Positions 3,556 through 16,403 of a DNA stretch of 32,635 nt are shown here, piece after piece. Position 1 is the first letter of the stretch; every line of letters starts with the position of its first letter. The notes under the pieces are model-generated. The model saw nothing but the letters and a program-made list of their open reading frames with translations. It was not told the DNA's origin and did no database searches. The DNA comes from a virus: UHGV virus genome UHGV-0186667. The stretch is one strand, 5' to 3'. The translations under genes and the position numbers were made by a program.

Positions 3556-3782
3556 TGGCTGATGCAATGGATCTCGTACAGCAGCGCGTTGAAGAAGAAC
3601 GCCAGCGTCATATCCGTGCTGCCCGTGCCAAAACGCCGGGCGTGTCCCGCGTGCTTTGCATTGAGTGTGAAGCGCCAATTCCGCCAGCACGCCGCCGTGC
3701 CATTCCGGGTGTGCAGCTTTGCATTACCTGTCAGGAAATCGCAGAGCTGAAAGGCAAACATTACAACGGAGGTGCTGTATGA
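3555..3782 (+). CDS. DksA/TraR-family C4 zinc-finger protein
   Basis: 75 aa with a four-cysteine motif CIECEAPIPPARRRAIPGVQLCITCQ, typical of TraR/DksA. Confidence 0.75.
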   Translation: MADAMDLVQQRVEEERQRHIRAARAKTPGVSRVLCIECEAPIPPARRRAIPGVQLCITCQEIAELKGKHYNGGAV

Positions 3783-4636
3783 GCACCATCCTGAAATGGG
3801 CGGGAAATAAAACTGCCATAATGTCAGAACTGAAAAAACACCTTCCTGCTGGCCCGCGACTGGTTGAACCTTTCGCGGGTTCCTGTGCTGTGATGATGGA
3901 GACGGATTACCCCAGCTATCTGGTTGCGGATATTAATCCTGATTTAATCAACCTCTATAAAAAGGTTGCCGCTGATTGTGAATCGTTTATATCGCGCGCC
4001 AGAGTTTTATTTGAGATCGCAAACAGGGAGGTGGCTTATTACAACATAAGGCAGGAGTTTAATTACTCCACTGAAATTACTGATTTCATGAAAGCGGTAT
4101 ATTTCCTGTATCTCAATCGTCACGGTTACCGTGGTTTATGTCGCTATAACAAGAGCGGGCATTTCAACATTCCCTACGGTAATTATAAAAATCCGTATTT
4201 CCCTGAAAAAGAAATTCGCGCATTTGCAGAAAAAGCCCAGCGGGCAACGTTTATCTGCGCCAGCTTTGATGAAACGCTGGCGATGTTGAAGGCGGGAGAT
4301 GTGGTGTATTGCGATCCGCCGTATGACGGCACGTTTTCCGGTTATCACACTGACGGCTTCACTGAAGATGACCAGTATCACCTGGCATCCGTTCTTGAAC
4401 ATCGGTCATCAGAAGGACATCCGGTCATTGTTTCTAACAGTGACACATCCCTGATCCGTTCGCTGTATCGCAATTTTACTCACCACTACATCAAGGCAAA
4501 ACGCAACATCGGTGTGGCAGCTGGCGAGGGTAAATCAGCAACAGAAATCATTGCTGTTTCCGGGCCGCGCTGCTGGGTGGGATTTGATTATTCGCGTAGC
4601 GTGGACAGTTCTGCCGTGTACGGAGTACGTGCATGA
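3779..4636 (+). CDS. dam: DNA adenine methyltransferase (Dam family)
   Basis: N-terminal ILKWAGNK motif, [15 protein letters not shown] block and DPPY catalytic motif (VYCDPPYDG) match E. coli Dam. Start ATG 3779 overlaps the upstream stop (ATGA). Confidence 0.85.
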
Positions 4637-7047
4637 GTCATGCCGATATGAACAACTGCTGCGGCTTTAACGAGGCTGCCGCAGCATTCTCATGGAACAG
4701 CCCGAAAAAAGCCATTAACCCTTATCTGGACCCGGCGGAAGTTGCGCCGGTTTCTGCGCTTTCAAACCTGATCACTCTGTACGCTGCCGATAACGAGCAG
4801 GAACAACTGCGCCGCGAGGCACTGAGTGATCAGGTCTGGGAGCGTTATTTCTTTAATGAATCCCGTGATCCTGTCCAGCGCGAAATGGAGCAGGATAAGC
4901 TAATTAGCCGGGCAAAGCTGGCGCATGAGCAGCAGCGTTTTAACCCGGACATGGTCATTCTGGCAGACGTCAGCGCCCAGCCCTCCCATATCAGCAAGCC
5001 GCTGATGCAACGTATTGAATACTTCAGCAGCCTGGGCAGGCCAAAGGCTTATTCCCGCTATTTACGTGAGACGATTAAGCCATGTCTGGAACGACTGGAG
5101 CATGTACGCGACAGCCAGCTATCTGCATCTTTTCGTTTTATGGCAAGCCATGTAGGGCTGGACGGCCTGCTGATTCTGCCTGAAATGAGTCAGGATCAGG
5201 TGAAACGCCTGTCTACCCTTGTCGCTGCGCATATGAGCATGTGCCTTGATGCAGCTTGTGGTGATTTGTATGCCACCGATGACGTTAAGCCAGAAGAAAT
5301 CCGCAAGACATGGGAAAAGGTGGCAGCGGAAACCCTGCGTCTGGATGTCATCCCGCCTGCGTTTGAGCAACTCCGCCGGAAAAGAAACCGCCGCAAACCT
5401 GTGCCCTATGAACTCATTCCGGGTTCGCTGGCGCGTATGCTGTGCGCCGACTGGTGGTATCGGAAATTATGGAAGATGCGTTGCGAATGGCGGGAAGAGC
5501 AGTTGCGTGCTGTCTGTCTGGTCAGCAAAAAAGCATCTCCCTATGTCAGCTATGAAGCCGTGATGCATAAACGTGAGCAGCGCCGCAAGTCACTGGAGTT
5601 TTTCCGTTCTCATGAACTGGTGAACGAAGAGGGCGACACGCTGGATATGGAAGACGTGGTAAACGCCAGCAGCAGCAACCCGGCGCACCGCCGCAATGAG
5701 ATGATGGCCTGTGTTAAAGGTCTGGAGCTTATCGCGGAAATGCGCGGTGACTGCGCCGTTTTCTACACCATTACCTGTCCGTCACGTTTCCATTCCACGC
5801 TCAATAACGGCAGACCAAACCCAACCTGGACAAATGCGACGGTAAGACAAAGCAGCGATTATCTGGTCGGCATGTTTGCTGCATTTCGTAAGGCGATGCA
5901 CAAAGCCGGGTTGCGCTGGTATGGCGTGCGGGTGGCTGAGCCGCATCATGACGGTACAGTTCACTGGCACCTGTTGTGTTTCATGCGCAAAAAAGACCGC
6001 CGCGCCATTACTGCATTGTTGCGTAAGTTTGCCATCCGTGAAGACCGCGAGGAACTGGGTAATAACACTGGTCCACGCTTTAAATCTGAGCTGATAAACC
6101 CGCGCAAAGGAACGCCGACAAGCTACATCGCGAAATACATCAGTAAGAACATTGACGGGCGTGGTCTGGCTGGCGAGATCAGCAAGGAAACGGGTAAATC
6201 CCTGCGTGATAACGCTGAATACGTTAATGCCTGGGCGTCTCTGCATCGTGTTCAGCAATTCCGCTTCTTTGGTATTCCGGGACGTCAGGCTTACCGTGAA
6301 CTTCGCTTGCTGGCTGGTCAGGCGGCAAGGCAACAGGGTGACAAAAAAGCAGGTGCGCCGGTACTGGATAACCCGCGTCTTGATGCCATTCTGGCTGCTG
6401 CTGATGCTGGTTGTTTTGCCACCTACATCATAAAGCAGGGCGGCGTACTGGTTCCCCGCAAATATCACCTCATCAGAACCGCTTATGAAATCAACGAAGT
6501 GCCAACCGCCTATGGCGATCACGGTATTCGTATTTATGGCATCTGGTCACCCATTGCAGAGGGCAAGATCTGCACTCATGCAGTGAAGTGGAAAATGGTT
6601 CGTAAGGCCGTTGACGTTCAGGAGGCGGCAGCCGACCAGGGCGCTTGCGCCCCTTGGACTCGTGGCAATAACTGTCCCCTTGCTGAAAATTTGTACCAAC
6701 AAGGGAAAGACAAATCAGCTGATGGGGATACCAGAACGGATATTACCCGCATGGATGACAAGGAATTGCACGATTACCTGCACAGTATGAACAAAAAAGA
6801 GCGCCGGGAACTGGCTGCAAGGTTACGCCTGGTGAAACCGAAACGGCGTAAAGACTACAAACAGCGAATTACAGACCATCAGCGACAGCAGCTCGTCTAT
6901 GAACTGAAGTCCAGAGGATTTGATGGCAGCGAGAAAGAGGTCGATTTACTCCTTCGCGGCGGCAGTATTCCGTCAGGAGCAGGCCTGCGTATCTTCTATC
7001 GGAACCAGCGTTTGCAGGAAGATGATAAGTGGCGAAACCTGTATTAA
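4633..7047 (+). CDS. A: Replication initiation protein A (rolling-circle HUH endonuclease)
   Basis: 804 aa. HUH-like motif VHWHLL and paired tyrosines YIAKYISK. Start overlaps the dam stop (ATGA). P2 gene A position. Confidence 0.85.
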
Positions 7048-7199: not shown

Positions 7200-7388
7200 A
7201 TGCAGGACTATTTTTTGGAGTCTTTGAAGCTCCAGCGCATTGATTTTTTTCTTAAGCTTGTAGCGGCTAGTGAGTGTAGTGATGAAGAGAAGGGGCTGGC
7301 TTTGCAGTGGGTTTCTGAACTAACAGATGAACTCATGGCAAAAATCAGAACCCACGAATACAACCGCTCAATGGATGTCATCAGTTGA
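7200..7388 (+). CDS. Hypothetical small protein, first gene of the SOS-controlled module
   Basis: 62-aa ORF with SD GGAGGA just upstream, directly after the LexA box; position equivalent to 186 tum. Confidence 0.45.
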   Translation: MQDYFLESLKLQRIDFFLKLVAASECSDEEKGLALQWVSELTDELMAKIRTHEYNRSMDVIS

Positions 7389-7399
7389 GGTGACTTTTT

Positions 7400-7633
7400 A
7401 TGCGCATTGAAATAATGATCGATAAAGAGCAGAAGATTAGCCAGTCTACCCTGGACGCCCTTGAATCCGAGCTTTACCGCAATCTGCGTCCTCTGTATCC
7501 CAAAATGGTAATTCGTATCCGCAAAGGTAGCTCTAACGGTGTGGAACTGACCGGATTGCAACTGGACGAAGAAAGAAAACAAGTGATGAAAATTATGCAG
7601 AAGGTGTGGGAAGACGACAGCTGGCTGCATTAA
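7400..7633 (+). CDS. DinI-family protein
   Basis: 77 aa. MRIEIMIDK...LDALESEL...VWEDDSWLH aligns by eye with E. coli DinI (MRIEVTIAK...IDALAGEL...TWESADDWF). Confidence 0.75.
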   Translation: MRIEIMIDKEQKISQSTLDALESELYRNLRPLYPKMVIRIRKGSSNGVELTGLQLDEERKQVMKIMQKVWEDDSWLH

Positions 7634-7903
7634 GAAACGTTGCTGGCGTCTGAACTTGCTTCTGGCGTCAGCAAGGTTGAACAACGAGCTATGCGAGGCG
7701 TTAGTGTCAATTTGTTACCTTAACCACTATATATGCCAGGAAATTAACAGTTCTTAAGAAACAGCTTGCATGATCGAGCGCATTGAACTTAAGTTTAAGT
7801 AACGCAATCAACAGATGATATTGTTGTCTAAATTTTAAAGATAATCTGTTGAGGTTGTAGGCGTCGGAGTGTAGACTTCCGCGCCATGTGAAAAGGGGGA
7901 GTT

Positions 7904-8119
7904 ATGTCAAGCATCGCCGCATTTAGCCTGGGTAACCCAGTTGAACGTCTGGCAAGGGTTCTTAAAGAGAACCAGGACAAACTCAATCTTAGTAAAGATG
8001 GTTTTGTGTCCGTAGACTTGTCTAACAAAAGAGCAATGGATGCCATCAAGGCACAGATGGATAAGCTTGAAGGCATCAAAACGAGCACTGTAAAAGAGAA
8101 AACTAATAGAACCAGATAA
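7904..8119 (+). CDS. Hypothetical small soluble protein, first gene of a two-gene cargo operon
   Basis: 71-aa ORF with strong SD AAGGGGGAG 4 nt upstream; its stop overlaps the next start (TAATG). No recognisable family. Confidence 0.5.
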   Translation: MSSIAAFSLGNPVERLARVLKENQDKLNLSKDGFVSVDLSNKRAMDAIKAQMDKLEGIKTSTVKEKTNRTR

Positions 8120-8961
8120 TGGCAACATTACTTTTAGCAGTGATTTTGGTTAGTGGTTTTATTTATGTAAACCTATCACTTTCAACAAGATACCGATATA
8201 AGCGTTCCAACGGCTGGGACGCTTATTTTTTTGTGGCTGCCTGGGGTATCGTTTTTTTTCTCCTTGGCGGTTTTTTCACCTTTATTTTGAACGTCAGCGG
8301 AGGGTTTCGTTGGCTGGCTAATGCCTTGAATCTAACACCTGACAGTTTTAATGGCATGTTGTCTTCATCGAAAGACAAACTTCAAAGAATAAATGAAATC
8401 AAACAGATAGCATGGGTTATGATTTCAATTGTCCTCGCTGCGATTTCAGGTTTTGGAAATAAGTTACGCACATCACGTGGAGATCGTCGTTGGGATGCCT
8501 TAGCTAAAGCTGTGGGTAATAACGCTTTCGAATCATTACTCATGGAAGCGTCCGCAAGACAGTTTCCGATCATAGCAACTCTGTCGTCTCGCAAAATCTA
8601 TGTTGGTCTTGTTACTTGTCCGGCGTTAGAAAACGGGCTTTCAGAGCACCTTGAACTTCTCCCGATGTTAAGCGGATATCGGGATAAAGATGATCTAACG
8701 ATTAGTATCACGACTAACTATCACCAACATTATCTTGATAGTGGTGTGATAAGTGGAATGTCTCGGCTTAATATCGAAGATTTCCGTGTGCTCATACCAA
8801 AAGATGAGGTTGAAACAATTTCGTTTTTTGATACTGAGACATATAACAAATTTAAAGAAAATGAAGCCAGGGATAGAAAGAACTGTCGAAAGATTGATAG
8901 TAAAAGTGCATCTTCGCGCAGCAAGCGTGCAGCAGATGCTGAGTCAAATGATCGTGCATGA
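8119..8961 (+). CDS. Hypothetical membrane protein with three predicted TM helices and a soluble C-terminal domain
   Basis: 280 aa. Hydrophobic segments at about aa 3-19, 35-57 and 96-112; C-terminal ~170 aa soluble with a basic tail. Visibly AT-rich compared with phage core genes. Confidence 0.6.
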   Translation: MATLLLAVILVSGFIYVNLSLSTRYRYKRSNGWDAYFFVAAWGIVFFLLGGFFTFILNVSGGFRWLANALNLTPDSFNGMLSSSKDKLQRINEIKQIAWVMISIVLAAISGFGNKLRTSRGDRRWDALAKAVGNNAFESLLMEASARQFPIIATLSSRKIYVGLVTCPALENGLSEHLELLPMLSGYRDKDDLTISITTNYHQHYLDSGVISGMSRLNIEDFRVLIPKDEVETISFFDTETYNKFKENEARDRKNCRKIDSKSASSRSKRAADAESNDRA

Positions 8962-9078
8962 CTATGCTGCATGAGATCGCATGATCGTTTGAGGATCGTT
9001 TTTGCTAGGGCCCGCCAGAACTGGCGGGCTTTCGCGTAGATCATGCACCTGCATGAAAACTACTACATAAAGCGGGCA

Positions 9079-9097
9079 GGCGTGGCGGGGATACGAG
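9079..9097. other. Candidate cos (cohesive-end) site
   Basis: GGCGTGGCGGGGATACGAG shares its first 13 nt with the 19-nt cohesive end of phage 186 as I remember it (GGCGTGGCGGGGAAAGCAT). Lies between hairpins and a 16-bp palindrome. Confidence 0.3.
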
Positions 9098-9198
9098 CGC
9101 GCGCAACAGTGTAACAATCTGGATCTAATGTGATATAGTTACTGTAAATATTATTAACTATTCTTATATGCATTATTAAATATTTTAATGGAGCGTTT

Positions 9199-10872
9199 AT
9201 GGAAAAATATCAAGATGAGGAATATGTAGATGATTTAACTGAGCGTGTTTTTCTCATTAAGCAACAACTGGAAGCGGGAAAACTAAAAATAGCTCATCAT
9301 CTTGTAGAAGGTTTTATTGAAAGTTTTAAAAGAATAAGGCTGCGACAGGATGGTAAAGTTGACCCTTCTACTGTTGATGGCAGAATAAGGGCTATGGGAG
9401 CAGCGGTTAATCACTTTTTAGAAAGAGAAGATATAAAAAACAAATACTCTATTCAGGACTTGCAAAGTTCTTACTTTAATATTCTTTTTAGTAATTTTGG
9501 CGAGTTGTTTTATCTGATGAAAAAAACTAATGCAACGCCACATAAAGCATCAAGTTTTTTTTCTCAACAAGAAGAATATGTTAAGCAAATAGAAGATATT
9601 TTTCCTGAGTTATATAATCAGGTAATAGAGTTTTGGCAGGTAACATCCGATATTGGTGTAATACATTTGCAGGATGGTTCTCAGTTTAAAGCTAATTTTT
9701 CTGGTGACTTATTTCCTGCATTTGATGAGAATGCTGTCTCTATTGCAGGGTTGTATGTTGATACTATTTCACTTCCATGTCCTATATTAAGAGTCGGTCG
9801 TCTCTATGAAAAGTCAGATAAGGCTGAGTTTACAAGGATACTTCTGAAGCATGTCCTAACATGTATGACATATAAAGAAGTAGCGCTTGAAGATATAGAG
9901 CCAGCAATAGTATTAATTTTGCCGGATAGAAGAGATTTTGAAACTGAGAGCAAAAAAAATTTGATGAGTTTTTGTGAGCCTTATGCTCTGACTCATGCGC
10001 AATATCTCTATGATCGACGGTTCGAAAGCTACGATGAATTTCGAGATTTTAGTTATTCGATGAATGATATTGATGCTGTTCTTAAAAATATTAAGAGAGC
10101 AGATAGACTTATTTTTGATACAGCATGGGGGCTAAATCCAAAAACTCAATTAGAAAAACTACTATCTGATAAAAAAAGAATATCACGTAATGTTGTTGGT
10201 GATCATGCTGGAATGGAGGTTTTCCTTTCCTGCATTGGAAGAATGCCGCAAGCCTATTCAGCAAAATGTAATGCACAAGAACTTGGTAGTACTCCATATA
10301 TAAATGCAGACACATCTTGGCTCTATTATACTTGGCTTATTGAGTACGAATCTCTTAATTTTGATGTCAATGATATTGAACTAAAAAATTTGCATATGGT
10401 TCATGCGTTATCTGCTGGTATGCAAGATGGTTTTTCATGGTTAGGAAATGTACCGGTCAATAAAATAATTGAGTTGAGACGTAACAAATTGATGGAGGAT
10501 GTAAGATCCATCTTATCAAATGGTGTTGACTCTTTAATCAATTCTTCGGCAGAGAGCTTTTCGAGGACAACGCAAAAAGTAATTGATAATGTAGACCGGG
10601 CTTTTATTGAACATCAAAGGATTCTTGCAAAAGCCCAAAAAGAGAAATTGAGAATTTACGGACTAGATGTCCTACCATGTATCGCAAATGGTGCTATAGC
10701 AATTGCTGGAGCGCTGACTGGCAATACTACTTTAACGGCGTTAAGTGCAGGCCTTGGAGTAATAGGTATTCCGAGTATTAGTGATATCAAATCTAAATTT
10801 AAGCAGAGGCAAGAGAAGCTTGATGCCTATCAACGTTCTGTTACAGGTATACTCTTTAGCCATAAATCTTAA
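9199..10872 (+). CDS. Hypothetical 557-aa cargo protein with C-terminal hydrophobic Gly/Ala-rich segment
   Basis: Long uninterrupted ORF, strongly AT-rich, SD GGAG 5 nt upstream. No Walker A, no YxDD, no recognisable catalytic motif. C-terminal stretch IANGAIAIAGALTGNTTLTALSAGLGVIGIPSI looks membrane-inserting. Confidence 0.7.
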   Translation: MEKYQDEEYVDDLTERVFLIKQQLEAGKLKIAHHLVEGFIESFKRIRLRQDGKVDPSTVDGRIRAMGAAVNHFLEREDIKNKYSIQDLQSSYFNILFSNFGELFYLMKKTNATPHKASSFFSQQEEYVKQIEDIFPELYNQVIEFWQVTSDIGVIHLQDGSQFKANFSGDLFPAFDENAVSIAGLYVDTISLPCPILRVGRLYEKSDKAEFTRILLKHVLTCMTYKEVALEDIEPAIVLILPDRRDFETESKKNLMSFCEPYALTHAQYLYDRRFESYDEFRDFSYSMNDIDAVLKNIKRADRLIFDTAWGLNPKTQLEKLLSDKKRISRNVVGDHAGMEVFLSCIGRMPQAYSAKCNAQELGSTPYINADTSWLYYTWLIEYESLNFDVNDIELKNLHMVHALSAGMQDGFSWLGNVPVNKIIELRRNKLMEDVRSILSNGVDSLINSSAESFSRTTQKVIDNVDRAFIEHQRILAKAQKEKLRIYGLDVLPCIANGAIAIAGALTGNTTLTALSAGLGVIGIPSISDIKSKFKQRQEKLDAYQRSVTGILFSHKS

Positions 10873-10878
10873 TGTAGA

Positions 10879-10907
10879 GGGCCGAGGTATTCGGCCCTTA
10901 GTTTTAT
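10879..10907. terminator. Hairpin terminator between the 557-aa gene and the portal gene
   Basis: GGGCCGA (10879-10885), loop GGTAT, TCGGCCC (10891-10897), then TTAGTTTTAT. The T-tract overlaps the portal stop codon. Confidence 0.45.
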
Positions 10908-11935
10908 ATGAAACTGTATGGCATGAATTTTATTATGTCATCTTTGAGCCATTTATTGAGTTCTTCTATTCTGTTTTGTAGCGGTATCAATTCATTACGC
11001 ATAAAAACCTTACTAGCCTTCTCCACATCCCCAAATCCCCCAACATTATTCGGCATTATCCCCATCATTTGCGGCGGCACTCGGTGTGCTGCCATCATGT
11101 CATCCCGGCTCACGTTCTTGATATTCAAAAATTCATCCTTTGCCGCGACTTCTGATAACGGGATGATTTGAAGCCCGTCCTTTTTGCCGTTAGGCGAGTA
11201 CATAAACAGATTGCGGAAGTTGCCTGGACCTTTGGCGCTTTTCATTGCGTTGCGGAGGTTGTTCACATCCTCCTGGTTCTGCGCGGTATCGGTCATGTAC
11301 ATGATGAAGCCTGCATGGCTGCCGTTGATGTAATACTTACGGCGGAACAGCGTGGCGGACTCGTTGAGCAGGGCTGACGGAATGGCAGAAAGATAGCCGG
11401 GCAGGCCGTAGATCTCCTGGTTAATGTCCGGTTCCATCAGATGAAAAATGCTGCCTTTCGTGAACTGATACGGCTGGGTTGTCATACCGTATTGCACAAA
11501 CCAGTAGGTATCCAGGTCTAACCCGCGTCGGGTGTATTTTGCCAGAGCAGGCTCAAGGGCGATAACTTCACCGAAGCGGTTCGTGCGTTTCTCCAGGTAG
11601 GCGTTACCAAATACCAGATAGTCCTGCACAAAACGTGAAAAAGCCTGCTGGCTGAGCAGCGGATGGGGGATGTAGGTACTGGTCAGAATGTTGCATTTCA
11701 CCGCAATTGGTGAACTGTGATGCACGGCGGCGCGGAAGGTGCGTGCCAGTCCGTCAAAGCTTACTGGCGGCTCATACCAGCGATCTGTCTGTACGCATTC
11801 CACATAGTCCAGTAGTTCGCGGCGGTCCAGAACAGGAACGGGATCACCGAAGCTGAATGCTTCGGCTGTAGTTTGACTTTTATGCTGGATCTGGTTCGTC
11901 GACGCAGCGCGGTTCTTCTTACTCTTTCCCATCAA
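10904..11935 (-). CDS. Q: Portal protein (P2 gpQ)
   Basis: 343 aa (P2 Q is about 344), minus strand, immediately downstream of the terminase gene. Confidence 0.85.
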   Translation of the reverse strand: MMGKSKKNRAASTNQIQHKSQTTAEAFSFGDPVPVLDRRELLDYVECVQTDRWYEPPVSFDGLARTFRAAVHHSSPIAVKCNILTSTYIPHPLLSQQAFSRFVQDYLVFGNAYLEKRTNRFGEVIALEPALAKYTRRGLDLDTYWFVQYGMTTQPYQFTKGSIFHLMEPDINQEIYGLPGYLSAIPSALLNESATLFRRKYYINGSHAGFIMYMTDTAQNQEDVNNLRNAMKSAKGPGNFRNLFMYSPNGKKDGLQIIPLSEVAAKDEFLNIKNVSRDDMMAAHRVPPQMMGIMPNNVGGFGDVEKASKVFMRNELIPLQNRIEELNKWLKDDIIKFMPYSFI

Positions 11936-13698
11936 AAAATCTCCACAATATTACTGGTATTGGCGGACTCGCCCTGCAGTGGTTCGTTAAACAGTGCGTG
12001 CATTGTTGCCCAGGCCAGATCGGCGTGGCTGGCTTCTTCGCTGCGGCTGGCTTCATAGGTCGGGCGGTTGCCGCTGGCGGTGGTGGCGCGACGGATTGCC
12101 ATGAATGACTGCGCAATGTCGGTGTGCCCGGCGTCAAACTCCAGACGGCGGTGGCTGATAATGTCGTAGGCCTTGAGCACCAGGGCGTTTTTAACGTTGG
12201 GGTTGTAGACAAACTCCCGGACGGCAGGAAAGAATGCTTTCACGTTCTCGTAAACCCCGTGACCAACGCCGGTTGAGTCGATACCGATATAAGTCACGTT
12301 GTACTGTTCGGTCAGTTTTTTGATGGCGTCAGCCTGAGCGCGGAAGTCCATCCCGCGCCACTGGTGACGCTCAAGAATGCGGAATTTACCGCCCGGTACG
12401 GCTGGCGGTGCCACCACCACGCATCCGGCACTGTCGCCGTTCTGAGTACCTTTTGCGGGGTCATAACCGATCCATACTTCGCGCCAGCCAAACGGGCGCA
12501 GGGCCAGTGCATGAAAGTCGGTCCAGATTTCCCAGCTGTCCACCATGCACGCCTGCAGTTCGCTGAGCGGGAACACGGACGCGAGATCGTCCACGAACTC
12601 GCACATCAGCAGGTTCTGGTATTCGTCCGGGCTGTACTCCATGCGCAGCTGGTCGAGGTCGAACAGGTTACAGCCGCCGCGCACCGCATCTTCCACGGTG
12701 ACTATCTGGCGGTATTGCCCGTCTGCGCACAGCAGGCCGGGGGCCAGATTGCTGTGGGACAGGTCGATGTCCACCTTGTCAGCTTTGTTGCGTCCACGGT
12801 TGAACAGCGCACCGGACCAGAACGGATAAGCACTGTGGGTCAGGCTGGATGGCGTGGAAAAATAGGTTTGTCGCCATTTCTTGTGAATAGCCATCCCGGA
12901 AGCCACTTTGCGCAGCTCCTGGAATTTCGGGATCCAGAAATATTCATCCAGATACAGGTTGCCGTGGTAACTCTGGGCCGTGCGGGCATTGGTTCCGAGG
13001 AAGTAAAGCGTGGCCCCATTAGGAAGCACCATCGGATCGCCTTTCAGCTCCACCTCCACTTCTTTGGCGAAGTCGATGATGTACTGCTTAAAGACGTGGG
13101 CCTGTGCCTTGCTGGCGGAAAGGAAAATCTGGTTACGCCCGGTTAGCAGGGCGTCAATCAGGGCTTCACGGGCAAAATAGAAGGTCGCGCCGATCTGGCG
13201 TGACTTCAGCAGGTTGCGGATGCGGTTGGTTTTTCCGGCTTCCCACCAGTGGCGCTGGTAGTTGAACATGGAGGAATGGAAGATTTCTTCCAGCTTCTCA
13301 ATCTGTTCATCGGTGAAAACGTTCTTTTCCGGCTGACGGCGCGGGCCTTTGTTGCGGTTGGCGACGTTAGGGTTTAAGTCGGCTTCGTTGCCGCCATTGT
13401 TAAACTTGCCGATCCGCGCATGGCGCTCCGACTGGCGCGCCAGCAGGTCAATCTCTTTGAAATCTTTCCCTTCTTTGTGCTCCTTCATAATGAGCTGGCA
13501 GTAGCGTGCGGCGGTGGTGAGCTGCATCTGATCCAGCGGCCCATAGTCACCCCACTTGTCGCGTTTTTTCCAGCTGTGAACGGTTGCAACTTTCTCGCCC
13601 AGCATTTCAGCAATGCGGGCTACGCGGTATCCCTGAAAGTACAGCAGCATGGCCTGCCGACGGGGATCGAGATCTGCGGGTGTCAGTGTGGTGTTCAT
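11932..13698 (-). CDS. P: Terminase large subunit, ATPase (P2 gpP)
   Basis: 588 aa (P2 P is about 590), minus strand, divergent from the capsid operon. Confidence 0.85.
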   Translation of the reverse strand: MNTTLTPADLDPRRQAMLLYFQGYRVARIAEMLGEKVATVHSWKKRDKWGDYGPLDQMQLTTAARYCQLIMKEHKEGKDFKEIDLLARQSERHARIGKFNNGGNEADLNPNVANRNKGPRRQPEKNVFTDEQIEKLEEIFHSSMFNYQRHWWEAGKTNRIRNLLKSRQIGATFYFAREALIDALLTGRNQIFLSASKAQAHVFKQYIIDFAKEVEVELKGDPMVLPNGATLYFLGTNARTAQSYHGNLYLDEYFWIPKFQELRKVASGMAIHKKWRQTYFSTPSSLTHSAYPFWSGALFNRGRNKADKVDIDLSHSNLAPGLLCADGQYRQIVTVEDAVRGGCNLFDLDQLRMEYSPDEYQNLLMCEFVDDLASVFPLSELQACMVDSWEIWTDFHALALRPFGWREVWIGYDPAKGTQNGDSAGCVVVAPPAVPGGKFRILERHQWRGMDFRAQADAIKKLTEQYNVTYIGIDSTGVGHGVYENVKAFFPAVREFVYNPNVKNALVLKAYDIISHRRLEFDAGHTDIAQSFMAIRRATTASGNRPTYEASRSEEASHADLAWATMHALFNEPLQGESANTSNIVEIF

Positions 13699-15752: not shown

Positions 15753-16403
15753 ATGAGCCTGAGTCCCGCACGGCAGCATCGCCTGCGCGTTCAGGCTGAA
15801 CAGGCCGCCCGCGAGGGCGGCAGCGTTCGCCACGCGTCGGGCTATGACCTGATGCTGCTGCAACTGGCGGAAGACCGCCGCCGTCTCAAGGGCGTTCAGT
15901 CCACGGTCAAAAAAGCGGAAATCAAGGTGGAGCTGCTGCCGAAGTACGCCGCCTGGGCGGAGGGTGTCCTGGCTGCCGGAGGCGCTCAACAGGATGACGT
16001 GCTGATGTACGTGATGCTGTGGCGCATTGATGCCGGAGATTATGCCGGGGCGCTGGAGATCGGGCGTCACGCCCTGCGTCATGGCTGGGTGATGCCGTTA
16101 GGTAACCGCAACGTGCAGACCGTGCTGGCAGAGGAAATGGCAGATGCAGCCCAGAGCGCAATGCTTGCCGCCACCGGCTTTGATGCCGATCTGTTGCTGC
16201 AGACCCTGGAGCTGACAGACGGTATGGATATGCCGGACCAGTCACGGGCGCGTCTGCATAAAGCGATTGGCGCTGTCCTGAGTGAAAGCAATCCGGCGTC
16301 TGCCCTTAATCATCTCAACCATGCGTTACAGCTCGATCCCCGCTGTGGCGTGAAAAAAGACAAACAGCAGCTGGAGCGCAGACTGCGCAATGACAGCCGC
16401 TGA
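15753..16403 (+). CDS. M: Terminase small/endonuclease subunit (P2 gpM)
   Basis: 216 aa immediately after N, as in P2. Confidence 0.8.
   Translation: MSLSPARQHRLRVQAEQAAREGGSVRHASGYDLMLLQLAEDRRRLKGVQSTVKKAEIKVELLPKYAAWAEGVLAAGGAQQDDVLMYVMLWRIDAGDYAGALEIGRHALRHGWVMPLGNRNVQTVLAEEMADAAQSAMLAATGFDADLLLQTLELTDGMDMPDQSRARLHKAIGAVLSESNPASALNHLNHALQLDPRCGVKKDKQQLERRLRNDSR

Follow-up and report, generated by a model that had tools for sequence, protein, structure and literature searches.

Gene content around the site

The window (the whole stretch of DNA analyzed, 32,635 nucleotides) carries an apparently complete P2-family (Fels-2/SEN8-type) prophage of the E. coli 210221272 chromosome, as judged from the ORF map and family scans. 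Positions 7640–10903 share 100% identity with the chromosome of this strain (NZ_CP016404.1), where RefSeq gives no cos feature and describes the three genes around the site studied here as "hypothetical protein". Replication gene A, a 62-aa ORF and DinI form the conserved left border of an accessory region that extends to the portal gene, and the gene order A – DinI – cos – Q – P matches the annotation of P2 and 186. The window also contains rightward scaffold, capsid, small terminase and tail genes, and the ORFs for the portal protein, both terminase subunits, scaffold, capsid and tail are all full length. The cognate terminase genes are present in the same element and read to their stop codon, and the large subunit has a helix-turn-helix-like segment at its N-terminus. 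The genes and gene modules referred to below are as follows.

Left edge of the window: integrase and repressor (family scans)
3719–4636: D12 Dam-type adenine methylase (family scan)
4633–7047, plus strand: replication gene A (Pfam Phage_GPA, 2e-127)
7200–7388: 62-aa ORF
7400–7633: DinI (Pfam DinI, 5e-23)
7904–8961, plus strand: left cargo, the overlapping 71-aa (7904–8119) and 280-aa (8119–8961) genes, identified by genome distribution, PHROG families and GC content
9105–10903, plus strand: right cargo module, with a promoter-like site (9111–9139), a 557-aa ORF (9199–10872) and a terminator hairpin (10877–10899), from the promoter/terminator scan
10904–11935, minus strand: portal gene, the P2 Q homologue (Pfam Phage_portal, 1.5e-17)
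11932–13698, minus strand: large terminase, the P2 P homologue (Pfam Terminase_5, Terminase_6N and Terminase_6C)
15753–16403, plus strand: small terminase, the P2 M homologue (Pfam Phage_term_smal, 1.5e-40)

Both cargos are poorer in GC than the core genes A, Q and P (0.51–0.59), with values of 0.38–0.45 across 7950–9000 and 0.32–0.40 across 9150–10950. The left cargo genes belong to two PHROG families without assigned function (phrog_9843 and phrog_3630) and had no match in Pfam, NCBIfam or PDB. The 557-aa protein of the right cargo matched nothing in Pfam, PHROG, NCBIfam or PDB, and its PADLOC matches were weak (DitB, 7e-10; LeoBC, 5e-3).

The predicted cos site and its left arm

The circular junctions of P2 (AF063097) and 186 (U32222), two phages with experimentally defined 19-nt 5' ends, were rebuilt from their annotated ends and then aligned to the window. 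Positions 9079–9097 coincided exactly with the annotated 19-nt cohesive ends, and the conserved flanks lined up as well, i.e., TCATGCAnCTGCAT-AAAAC and CATAAAG(C/T)GGGCA before the cut and (C/T)GCGCGC after it, and in 186 also a GC stem-loop. The distal triple TGCAT repeats are shared with both phages as well, and ~130 bp of flanking homology connects the window to experimentally defined cos regions at a syntenic position, with the same length of the ends and the same portal/terminase neighbourhood. The 19-mer itself, GGCGTGGCGGGGATACGAG, occurs once in the window and has the P2-family form GGCG(A/T)GGCGGGG followed by 7 nt. It is identical to the 186 cohesive end at 15/19 positions (4 substitutions, with the first 13 nt unchanged), to the P2 end at 14/19 (5 substitutions) and to SEN8 cos at 19/19, and the differences from P2 and 186 are concentrated in the last six positions. 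The resemblance to the 186/P2 ends on which the earlier note had based a candidate cos was therefore confirmed; the check that it had named, alignment to the P2 and 186 cos regions, placed the homologue at 9079–9097, and no other interval of the window resembled cos in the pattern scan described below.

The exact 19-mer has been published as the cos of Salmonella phage SEN8 (PMC5427200), whose record begins with this sequence and ends exactly at the equivalent of window position 9078. The same sequence is annotated as a putative cos in the record of Escherichia phage Cartapus, and it is also found in Fels-2, SopEPhi and several Klebsiella phages. The cos features of SEN8 and Cartapus are annotations by analogy or homology, and a literature search with either strand returned no experimental end determination for the exact 19-mer, only the annotation-based SEN8 announcement. 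Sixteen variants of the 19-mer were found at 121 viral loci, and that of the window is the commonest of them (n = 45).

The 19-mer is part of a 151-bp block (8954–9104) homologous to the cos regions of P2, 186 and satellite P4 and located between replication gene A/DinI and portal gene Q, as is cos in P2 and 186. When 7640–10903 was compared with 5426 complete E. coli genomes, 1274 had a match, the great majority only at 8954–9104 (query 1315–1465), and the block was present in ~1270 genomes with both flanks variable. Matches in the phage database stop at 9104–9114. We also collected 120 viral contigs with the motif AAAGYGGGCRGGCGWGGCGGGG and aligned 128 distinct versions of −130 to +30; the invariance of −10 to +12 in this sample is imposed by the search pattern and carries no meaning. 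Outside these positions, TGCAT at −29 to −25, an A-tract and CA-AAAG were conserved at 90–100% across the 128 arms. Information content calculated from 118 distinct viral loci was 1.0–2.0 bits at +20 to +26 (1.3–2.0 bits for GCGCGC at +21 to +26) and 0.1–0.3 bits from +27 (window 9105), an abrupt end at +26/+27. Conserved sequence thus covers only 7 bp to the right of the 19-mer versus ~125 bp to the left.

The minimal cos fragment may be roughly 125 bp long. The stretch alignable between P2 and P4 consists of TGCAT-AAAAC...AAGCGGGC, the 19-mer and yGCGCGC, with high information content up to 9104, and 9050–9104 aligns gap-free to P2, P4 and 186. By our own mapping, this segment would correspond to the 55-bp P2-family cos core of Ziermann & Calendar 1990, as cited in PMC5694545 and PMC3931495, and the minimal-cos dimensions used here rest on these secondary citations.

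Given the homology to the P2 and 186 cos regions, the SEN8-identical 19-mer and the synteny, 8954–9104 is very probably the cos site of a P2-family prophage. The interval first put forward as cos, 8962–9198, holds up as far as 9104, and the remainder (9105–9198) is the AT-rich leader of the right cargo gene. The cos of a P2/Fels-2-type E. coli prophage is an ordinary, well-described and already known feature. Its parts in the window are listed below; read from left to right, the three distal YGCATGA repeats and the GATC pair are followed by the GC stem-loop, the inverted TGCA pair and an A-tract, and then by CATAAAGCGGGCA, the 19-mer and CGCGCGC.

8954–9104, plus strand: whole conserved cos block, i.e., left arm, 19-mer and 7-bp right edge (E. 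coli genome and phage-database matches)
8955–8961, 8968–8974 and 8978–8984, plus strand: three direct YGCATGA repeats of the distal left arm (heptamer scan and conservation)
8983–8997, no strand assigned: GATC-N7-GATC pair, part of a cluster of five GATC sites (site scan and comparison with 128 arms)
9010–9029, plus strand: GC-rich stem-loop (inverted-repeat scan, RNA fold and covariation)
9041–9056, no strand assigned: inverted TCATGCA/TGCATGA pair (inverted-repeat scan; 7-nt arms around a CC centre)
9050–9104, plus strand: equivalent of the published 55-bp P2-family cos core (P2-P4 alignable stretch)
9079–9097, plus strand: predicted 19-nt 5' cohesive end (register with P2 cosL/cosR and 186 cos)
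9098–9104, plus strand: CGCGCGC, conserved right edge of cos (information content)

Five of the 19 YGCATGA matches in the window fall within 8955–9056, and their GCAT cores are at least 90% conserved across the 128 P2/P4-family cos arms. The triple repeats are present in P2, 186 and P4, and left-arm repeats were also detected in Erwinia and Aeromonas phages. This conservation suggests that the repeats at 8955–8984 are a terminase recognition element. In the inverted pair nearer to the 19-mer, the right half (TGCAT) is 98–100% conserved and the left half 80–97%, while the centre dinucleotide varies among relatives as CC, GG or AC, suggesting that only the TGCA/TGCAT half-sites are read. The centre is CC in the window and GG in the SEN8/Fels-2/SopEPhi/Cartapus group; ATGCACCTGCAT (9043–9054) is the exact reverse complement of ATGCAGGTGCAT in Fels-2, SEN8 and SopEPhi.

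The stem-loop has two arms of nine complementary nucleotides (9010–9018 with 9021–9029) and folds as RNA with −23.2 kcal/mol (z = −3.6). Among the 128 relatives, 81% of cells were paired, compared with 26–45% when the partner was slid, and double changes occurred in all eight pairs (83 cells versus 33 ± 4 in shuffles). Judged by these compensatory changes, the stem-loop is structurally conserved, and the same conservation may point to a role in cos. A large structured RNA spanning the whole block was considered and rejected, as its fold was only marginally better than that of shuffles (z = −2.2). The 3' arm sequence TGGCGGG (9022–9028) recurs inside the cohesive end at 9083–9089, so that the 19-mer contains the complement of the 5' arm CCCGCCA; this is possibly a repeated recognition element, or a coincidence in GC-rich sequence.

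Both structured elements had been located correctly before this analysis, but their description needs amendment. The GC hairpin CCCGCCA-GAAC-TGGCGGG, given as 9011–9028, is longer (9010–9029), and the 16-bp palindrome at 9041–9056 is not a perfect one, as TCATGCA-CC-TGCATGA has a non-palindromic CC centre. The view that cos is flanked by hairpins was wrong, because both elements lie to the left of the 19-mer, within the conserved left arm.

The stem-loop has an even chance of being an intrinsic terminator, one that would halt rightward transcription of A, DinI and the left cargo before it reaches cos, rather than a recognition element for terminase or a host factor. In favour of a terminator, the compensatory changes point to selection on a folded single strand, TTTT(G) follows the stem in most Fels-2-type relatives, and the version in Erwinia phage ENT90 is a textbook terminator with T8 that was called by the scan. 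In the window, however, the GC stem is present without the U-tract of a Rho-independent terminator, and 9010–9029 was not called because its tail is TTTCGCG; the T-run is intact in the SEN8/Fels-2/SopEPhi/Cartapus group, yet the scan did not call the Fels-2 version either. The 186 and P4 versions also lack a T-run, P2 has no hairpin at all, and the inner CCAG/CTGG hardly varies, which would fit a contact with a protein.

Five GATC sites (8950, 8975, 8983, 8994 and 9039) make 8950–9042 the densest 100-bp stretch for this tetranucleotide in the window. A GATC-N6-8-GATC pair, its two sites about one helical turn apart, was found in 76 of the 128 related arms, with 20 different spacers, and at −96 from the nick in 71 of them. 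Almost all such pairs belong to the ...CGAG/CGAT cos subtypes (47/49 for ATACGAG, versus 1/23 for the P2, 186 and P4 types), and P2 and 186 themselves lack the pair. Fels-2/SEN8-type phages usually encode their own Dam-type methylase, and arms from phages with such a gene have 2.8 GATCs versus 1.3 in those without (p = 5e-4, a difference confounded by lineage). We rejected this count as evidence of mechanism because of the confounding and because relatives lacking Dam still keep 2–3 GATCs in the arm. By analogy with the P1 pac site, cos use in the Fels-2/SEN8-type lineage might be under adenine-methylation control, which we regard as improbable; if true, the methylation state, or SeqA on hemimethylated DNA, would time cleavage relative to replication.

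Predicted nicks and integrity of the site

The 186 record (U32222) places the top-strand cut at the 5' end of the 19-mer and the bottom-strand cut at its 3' end. By analogy, the nicks in the window are predicted at 9078/9079 on the top strand and at 9097/9098 on the bottom strand. The phage terminase (large subunit, 11932–13698; small subunit, 15753–16403) would bind the asymmetric left arm, as proposed by analogy with P2 and 186, and nick 19 nt apart, leaving 19-nt 5' overhangs that would re-anneal after injection. The cos of lambda (cosQ-cosN-cosB) is likewise a staggered-nick site with an asymmetric arm of repeats, presumably read by the small terminase; it differs in its 12-nt ends and has no sequence similarity to the site in the window. 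The conserved arm would lie at the right end of the mature DNA here, whereas cosB of lambda lies at the left end. Lambda terminase cuts concatemers and P2 terminase cuts monomer circles, and it is the use of monomer circles that would explain why all recognition elements are on one side of the cut.

A true cos homologue could still be a relic, i.e., belong to a defective prophage and never be cut in this strain. Some carriers of the same right cargo are clearly degraded, for example E. coli PE15 with its truncated portal and tail genes. We consider this unlikely for the window, since its portal, terminase, scaffold, capsid and tail ORFs are full length, its cos block has every conserved position of the family, and a close relative exists as a circular 37.4-kb replicon.

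It is less likely still that cos regions of the ATACGAG subtype are nicked at other positions than those of P2 and 186, which would change the overhang. The 19-mer departs from that of 186 at positions 14, 16, 17 and 19, which change together with +20 (CGAG-C versus GCAT-T), and experimental ends for this subtype were not found in the literature. However, the subtypes hardly differ in sequence around either predicted nick (AAAGCGGGCA|GGCG and A-N|yGCGCGC, where the bar marks the nick), and no indels alter the distance from one conserved flank to the other.

With up to three mismatches allowed, a degenerate P2/186-type cos pattern matched the window once, with 0 mismatches at 9079–9097, and gave no second cos candidate elsewhere in the window. 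The chance level of this pattern is 0.21 expected matches, with at least one match in 20 of 100 shuffles, and the real proof against chance resemblance is the conservation of the site. That the interval is an ordinary intergenic regulatory region (terminator hairpin plus promoter) resembling cos by chance is effectively refuted: it does hold a stem-loop and a promoter-like site (9111–9139), and the loose pattern does turn up in shuffles, but the promoter-like site is outside the conserved block, and the match is one of 0 mismatches with ~130 bp of syntenic homology to experimentally defined cos regions.

Two cargo slots, one on each side of the predicted cos

To the right of cos, the portal gene follows after ~170–190 bp in P2 and 186, whereas 1.8 kb of cargo is inserted in the window. 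At 87 viral loci, the distance from cos to the portal stop codon was 185–277 bp in 25 (the "empty" P2/186 state) and >480 bp in 62. With extra DNA defined by a cos-to-Q distance of >300 bp and an A-to-cos distance of >1000 bp, both sides were occupied in 21 of the 57 related viral loci at which both could be measured. Different right inserts each carry a terminator hairpin of their own next to the portal stop codon, at 10877–10899 in this case. On the left, the first TGCATGA repeat of the cos arm contains the TGA stop codon of the 280-aa gene (8959–8961), so that gene and insert both end at the edge of cos.

The two cargos come and go independently among the 5426 complete E. coli genomes. The left cargo (7700–8953) was detected in 52 of them and the right cargo (9105–10903) in 17, and only the source genome, E. 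coli 210221272, has both. The 557-aa gene is present in E. coli PE15 (NZ_CP041628.1) and in p13P477T-2, where the left slot is empty and DinI directly abuts cos, while ECCRA-119 combines the 71/280-aa pair of the window with a SieB-family exclusion gene as its right cargo. The claim of cargo on both sides of the packaging site is borne out by these patterns, as both neighbours of the predicted cos are low-GC accessory DNA of variable content. In the P2 phage family, it is usual for cos to have variable accessory genes to its left and right.

Three of the relatives deserve separate description. The 'plasmid p13P477T-2' of E. coli 13P477T (CP019275.1) is a 37.4-kb circular P2-like phage genome with the same cos and right cargo; the left cargo is absent, many genes are frameshifted, and the record probably represents a phage circle, excised or replicating, that the assembly presented as a plasmid. 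In E. coli PE15 (4757628–4760452), the portal gene is truncated and fused to tail-gene fragments and the tail genes are truncated; since cos and the 557-aa gene are intact in this degraded prophage, the cargo gene outlives the phage. A 15-kb viral contig (IMGVR_UViG_3300046474_000544) has two cos motifs of different subtypes, 7.2 kb apart (2538–2559 and 9785–9806), each followed by a portal homologue, and may represent tandem P2-like elements or an assembly chimera.

Comparison of locus pairs, which are phylogenetically non-independent and thus give descriptive figures, showed that the left arm (−130 to −14) matches in 99% of the pairs sharing the far-left flank but in only 22% of those sharing the right flank, and that the left and right flanks are almost unlinked (4%). 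As the left arm tracks the left flank and rarely the right one, the exchange junction would lie in the invariant core (−13 to +26). On the evidence of these comparisons, the A-Q region resolves into two independently assorting slots with a linkage break in the cos core. Foreign DNA would be tolerated from 8 bp to the right of the cut up to the portal stop codon, and also to the left of 8954, because nearly all of the recognition sequence is on the left of the cut, with conservation limited to 7 bp on the right.

After the predicted cut, the linear genome would run from 9079 rightward through the 557-aa gene, Q and P, and around to A, DinI and the 71/280-aa genes, with the left arm last. Because the two variable gene sets adjoin cos on opposite sides, each end of linear virion DNA would carry one of them, so the two independent slots would come to lie at opposite ends of the genome. 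This agrees with the earlier note, which had assigned cargo to both ends of the linear form; the right cargo would be at the left end and the left cargo at the right end.

The gpA-gpQ region adjacent to cos is described as an accessory/defence hotspot of P2 in the sections of Rousset et al. 2022 (PMC9122126) devoted to it, which also speculate that cohesive ends promote exchange. The corresponding part of a 2026 NAR survey (PMC13586616) treats A-Q as one hotspot in the same way. The cos-Q insertion slot goes back to Dodd & Egan 1996 and Nakayama 1999, as cited in passages of PMC5694545, where the cos-portal slot is recognised for the retrons Ec67/Ec86 in a 186-related prophage and for ctx in phiCTX. 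In the P2 annotation, P2's own old and tin genes are on the other side of cos. The window agrees with the hotspot in that gene content between the conserved A and Q varies among related prophages, with similarly variable low-GC genes by cos, cargo immediately to its right and a terminator next to the portal gene; it differs in having two slots where those parts of the surveys describe one, and cargo without assigned function. The closest phages, the Felsduovirus-type Salmonella SEN8/Fels-2/SopEPhi and Escherichia Cartapus, have a nearly identical left arm in addition to the 19-mer and likewise have genes in both intervals, cos to Q and DinI to cos; the cargo genes differ from those of the window. 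In satellite P4, which has no packaging genes of its own and a P2-type 19-mer, the 55-bp core is found again together with the triple TGCAT repeats and a GC stem-loop, and the DNA immediately beside cos is a variable hotspot. The site and its two-sided arrangement are established, and the independent assortment and the sharp +7 boundary are a refinement, not a discovery.

The main value of these results is correct annotation of the prophage, for which the RefSeq entry has no cos. A cos at 9079–9097 defines the ends of the virion genome; ~120 bp would separate the left end from the beginning of the 557-aa gene, and ~120 bp the 71/280-aa pair from the right end. In practice, searches for accessory and defence genes can be refined by using the 151-bp block as a fixed landmark that splits the A-Q "hotspot" in two, and the linkage break in the cos core fits, without proving it, the published speculation that cargo is exchanged through cohesive ends.
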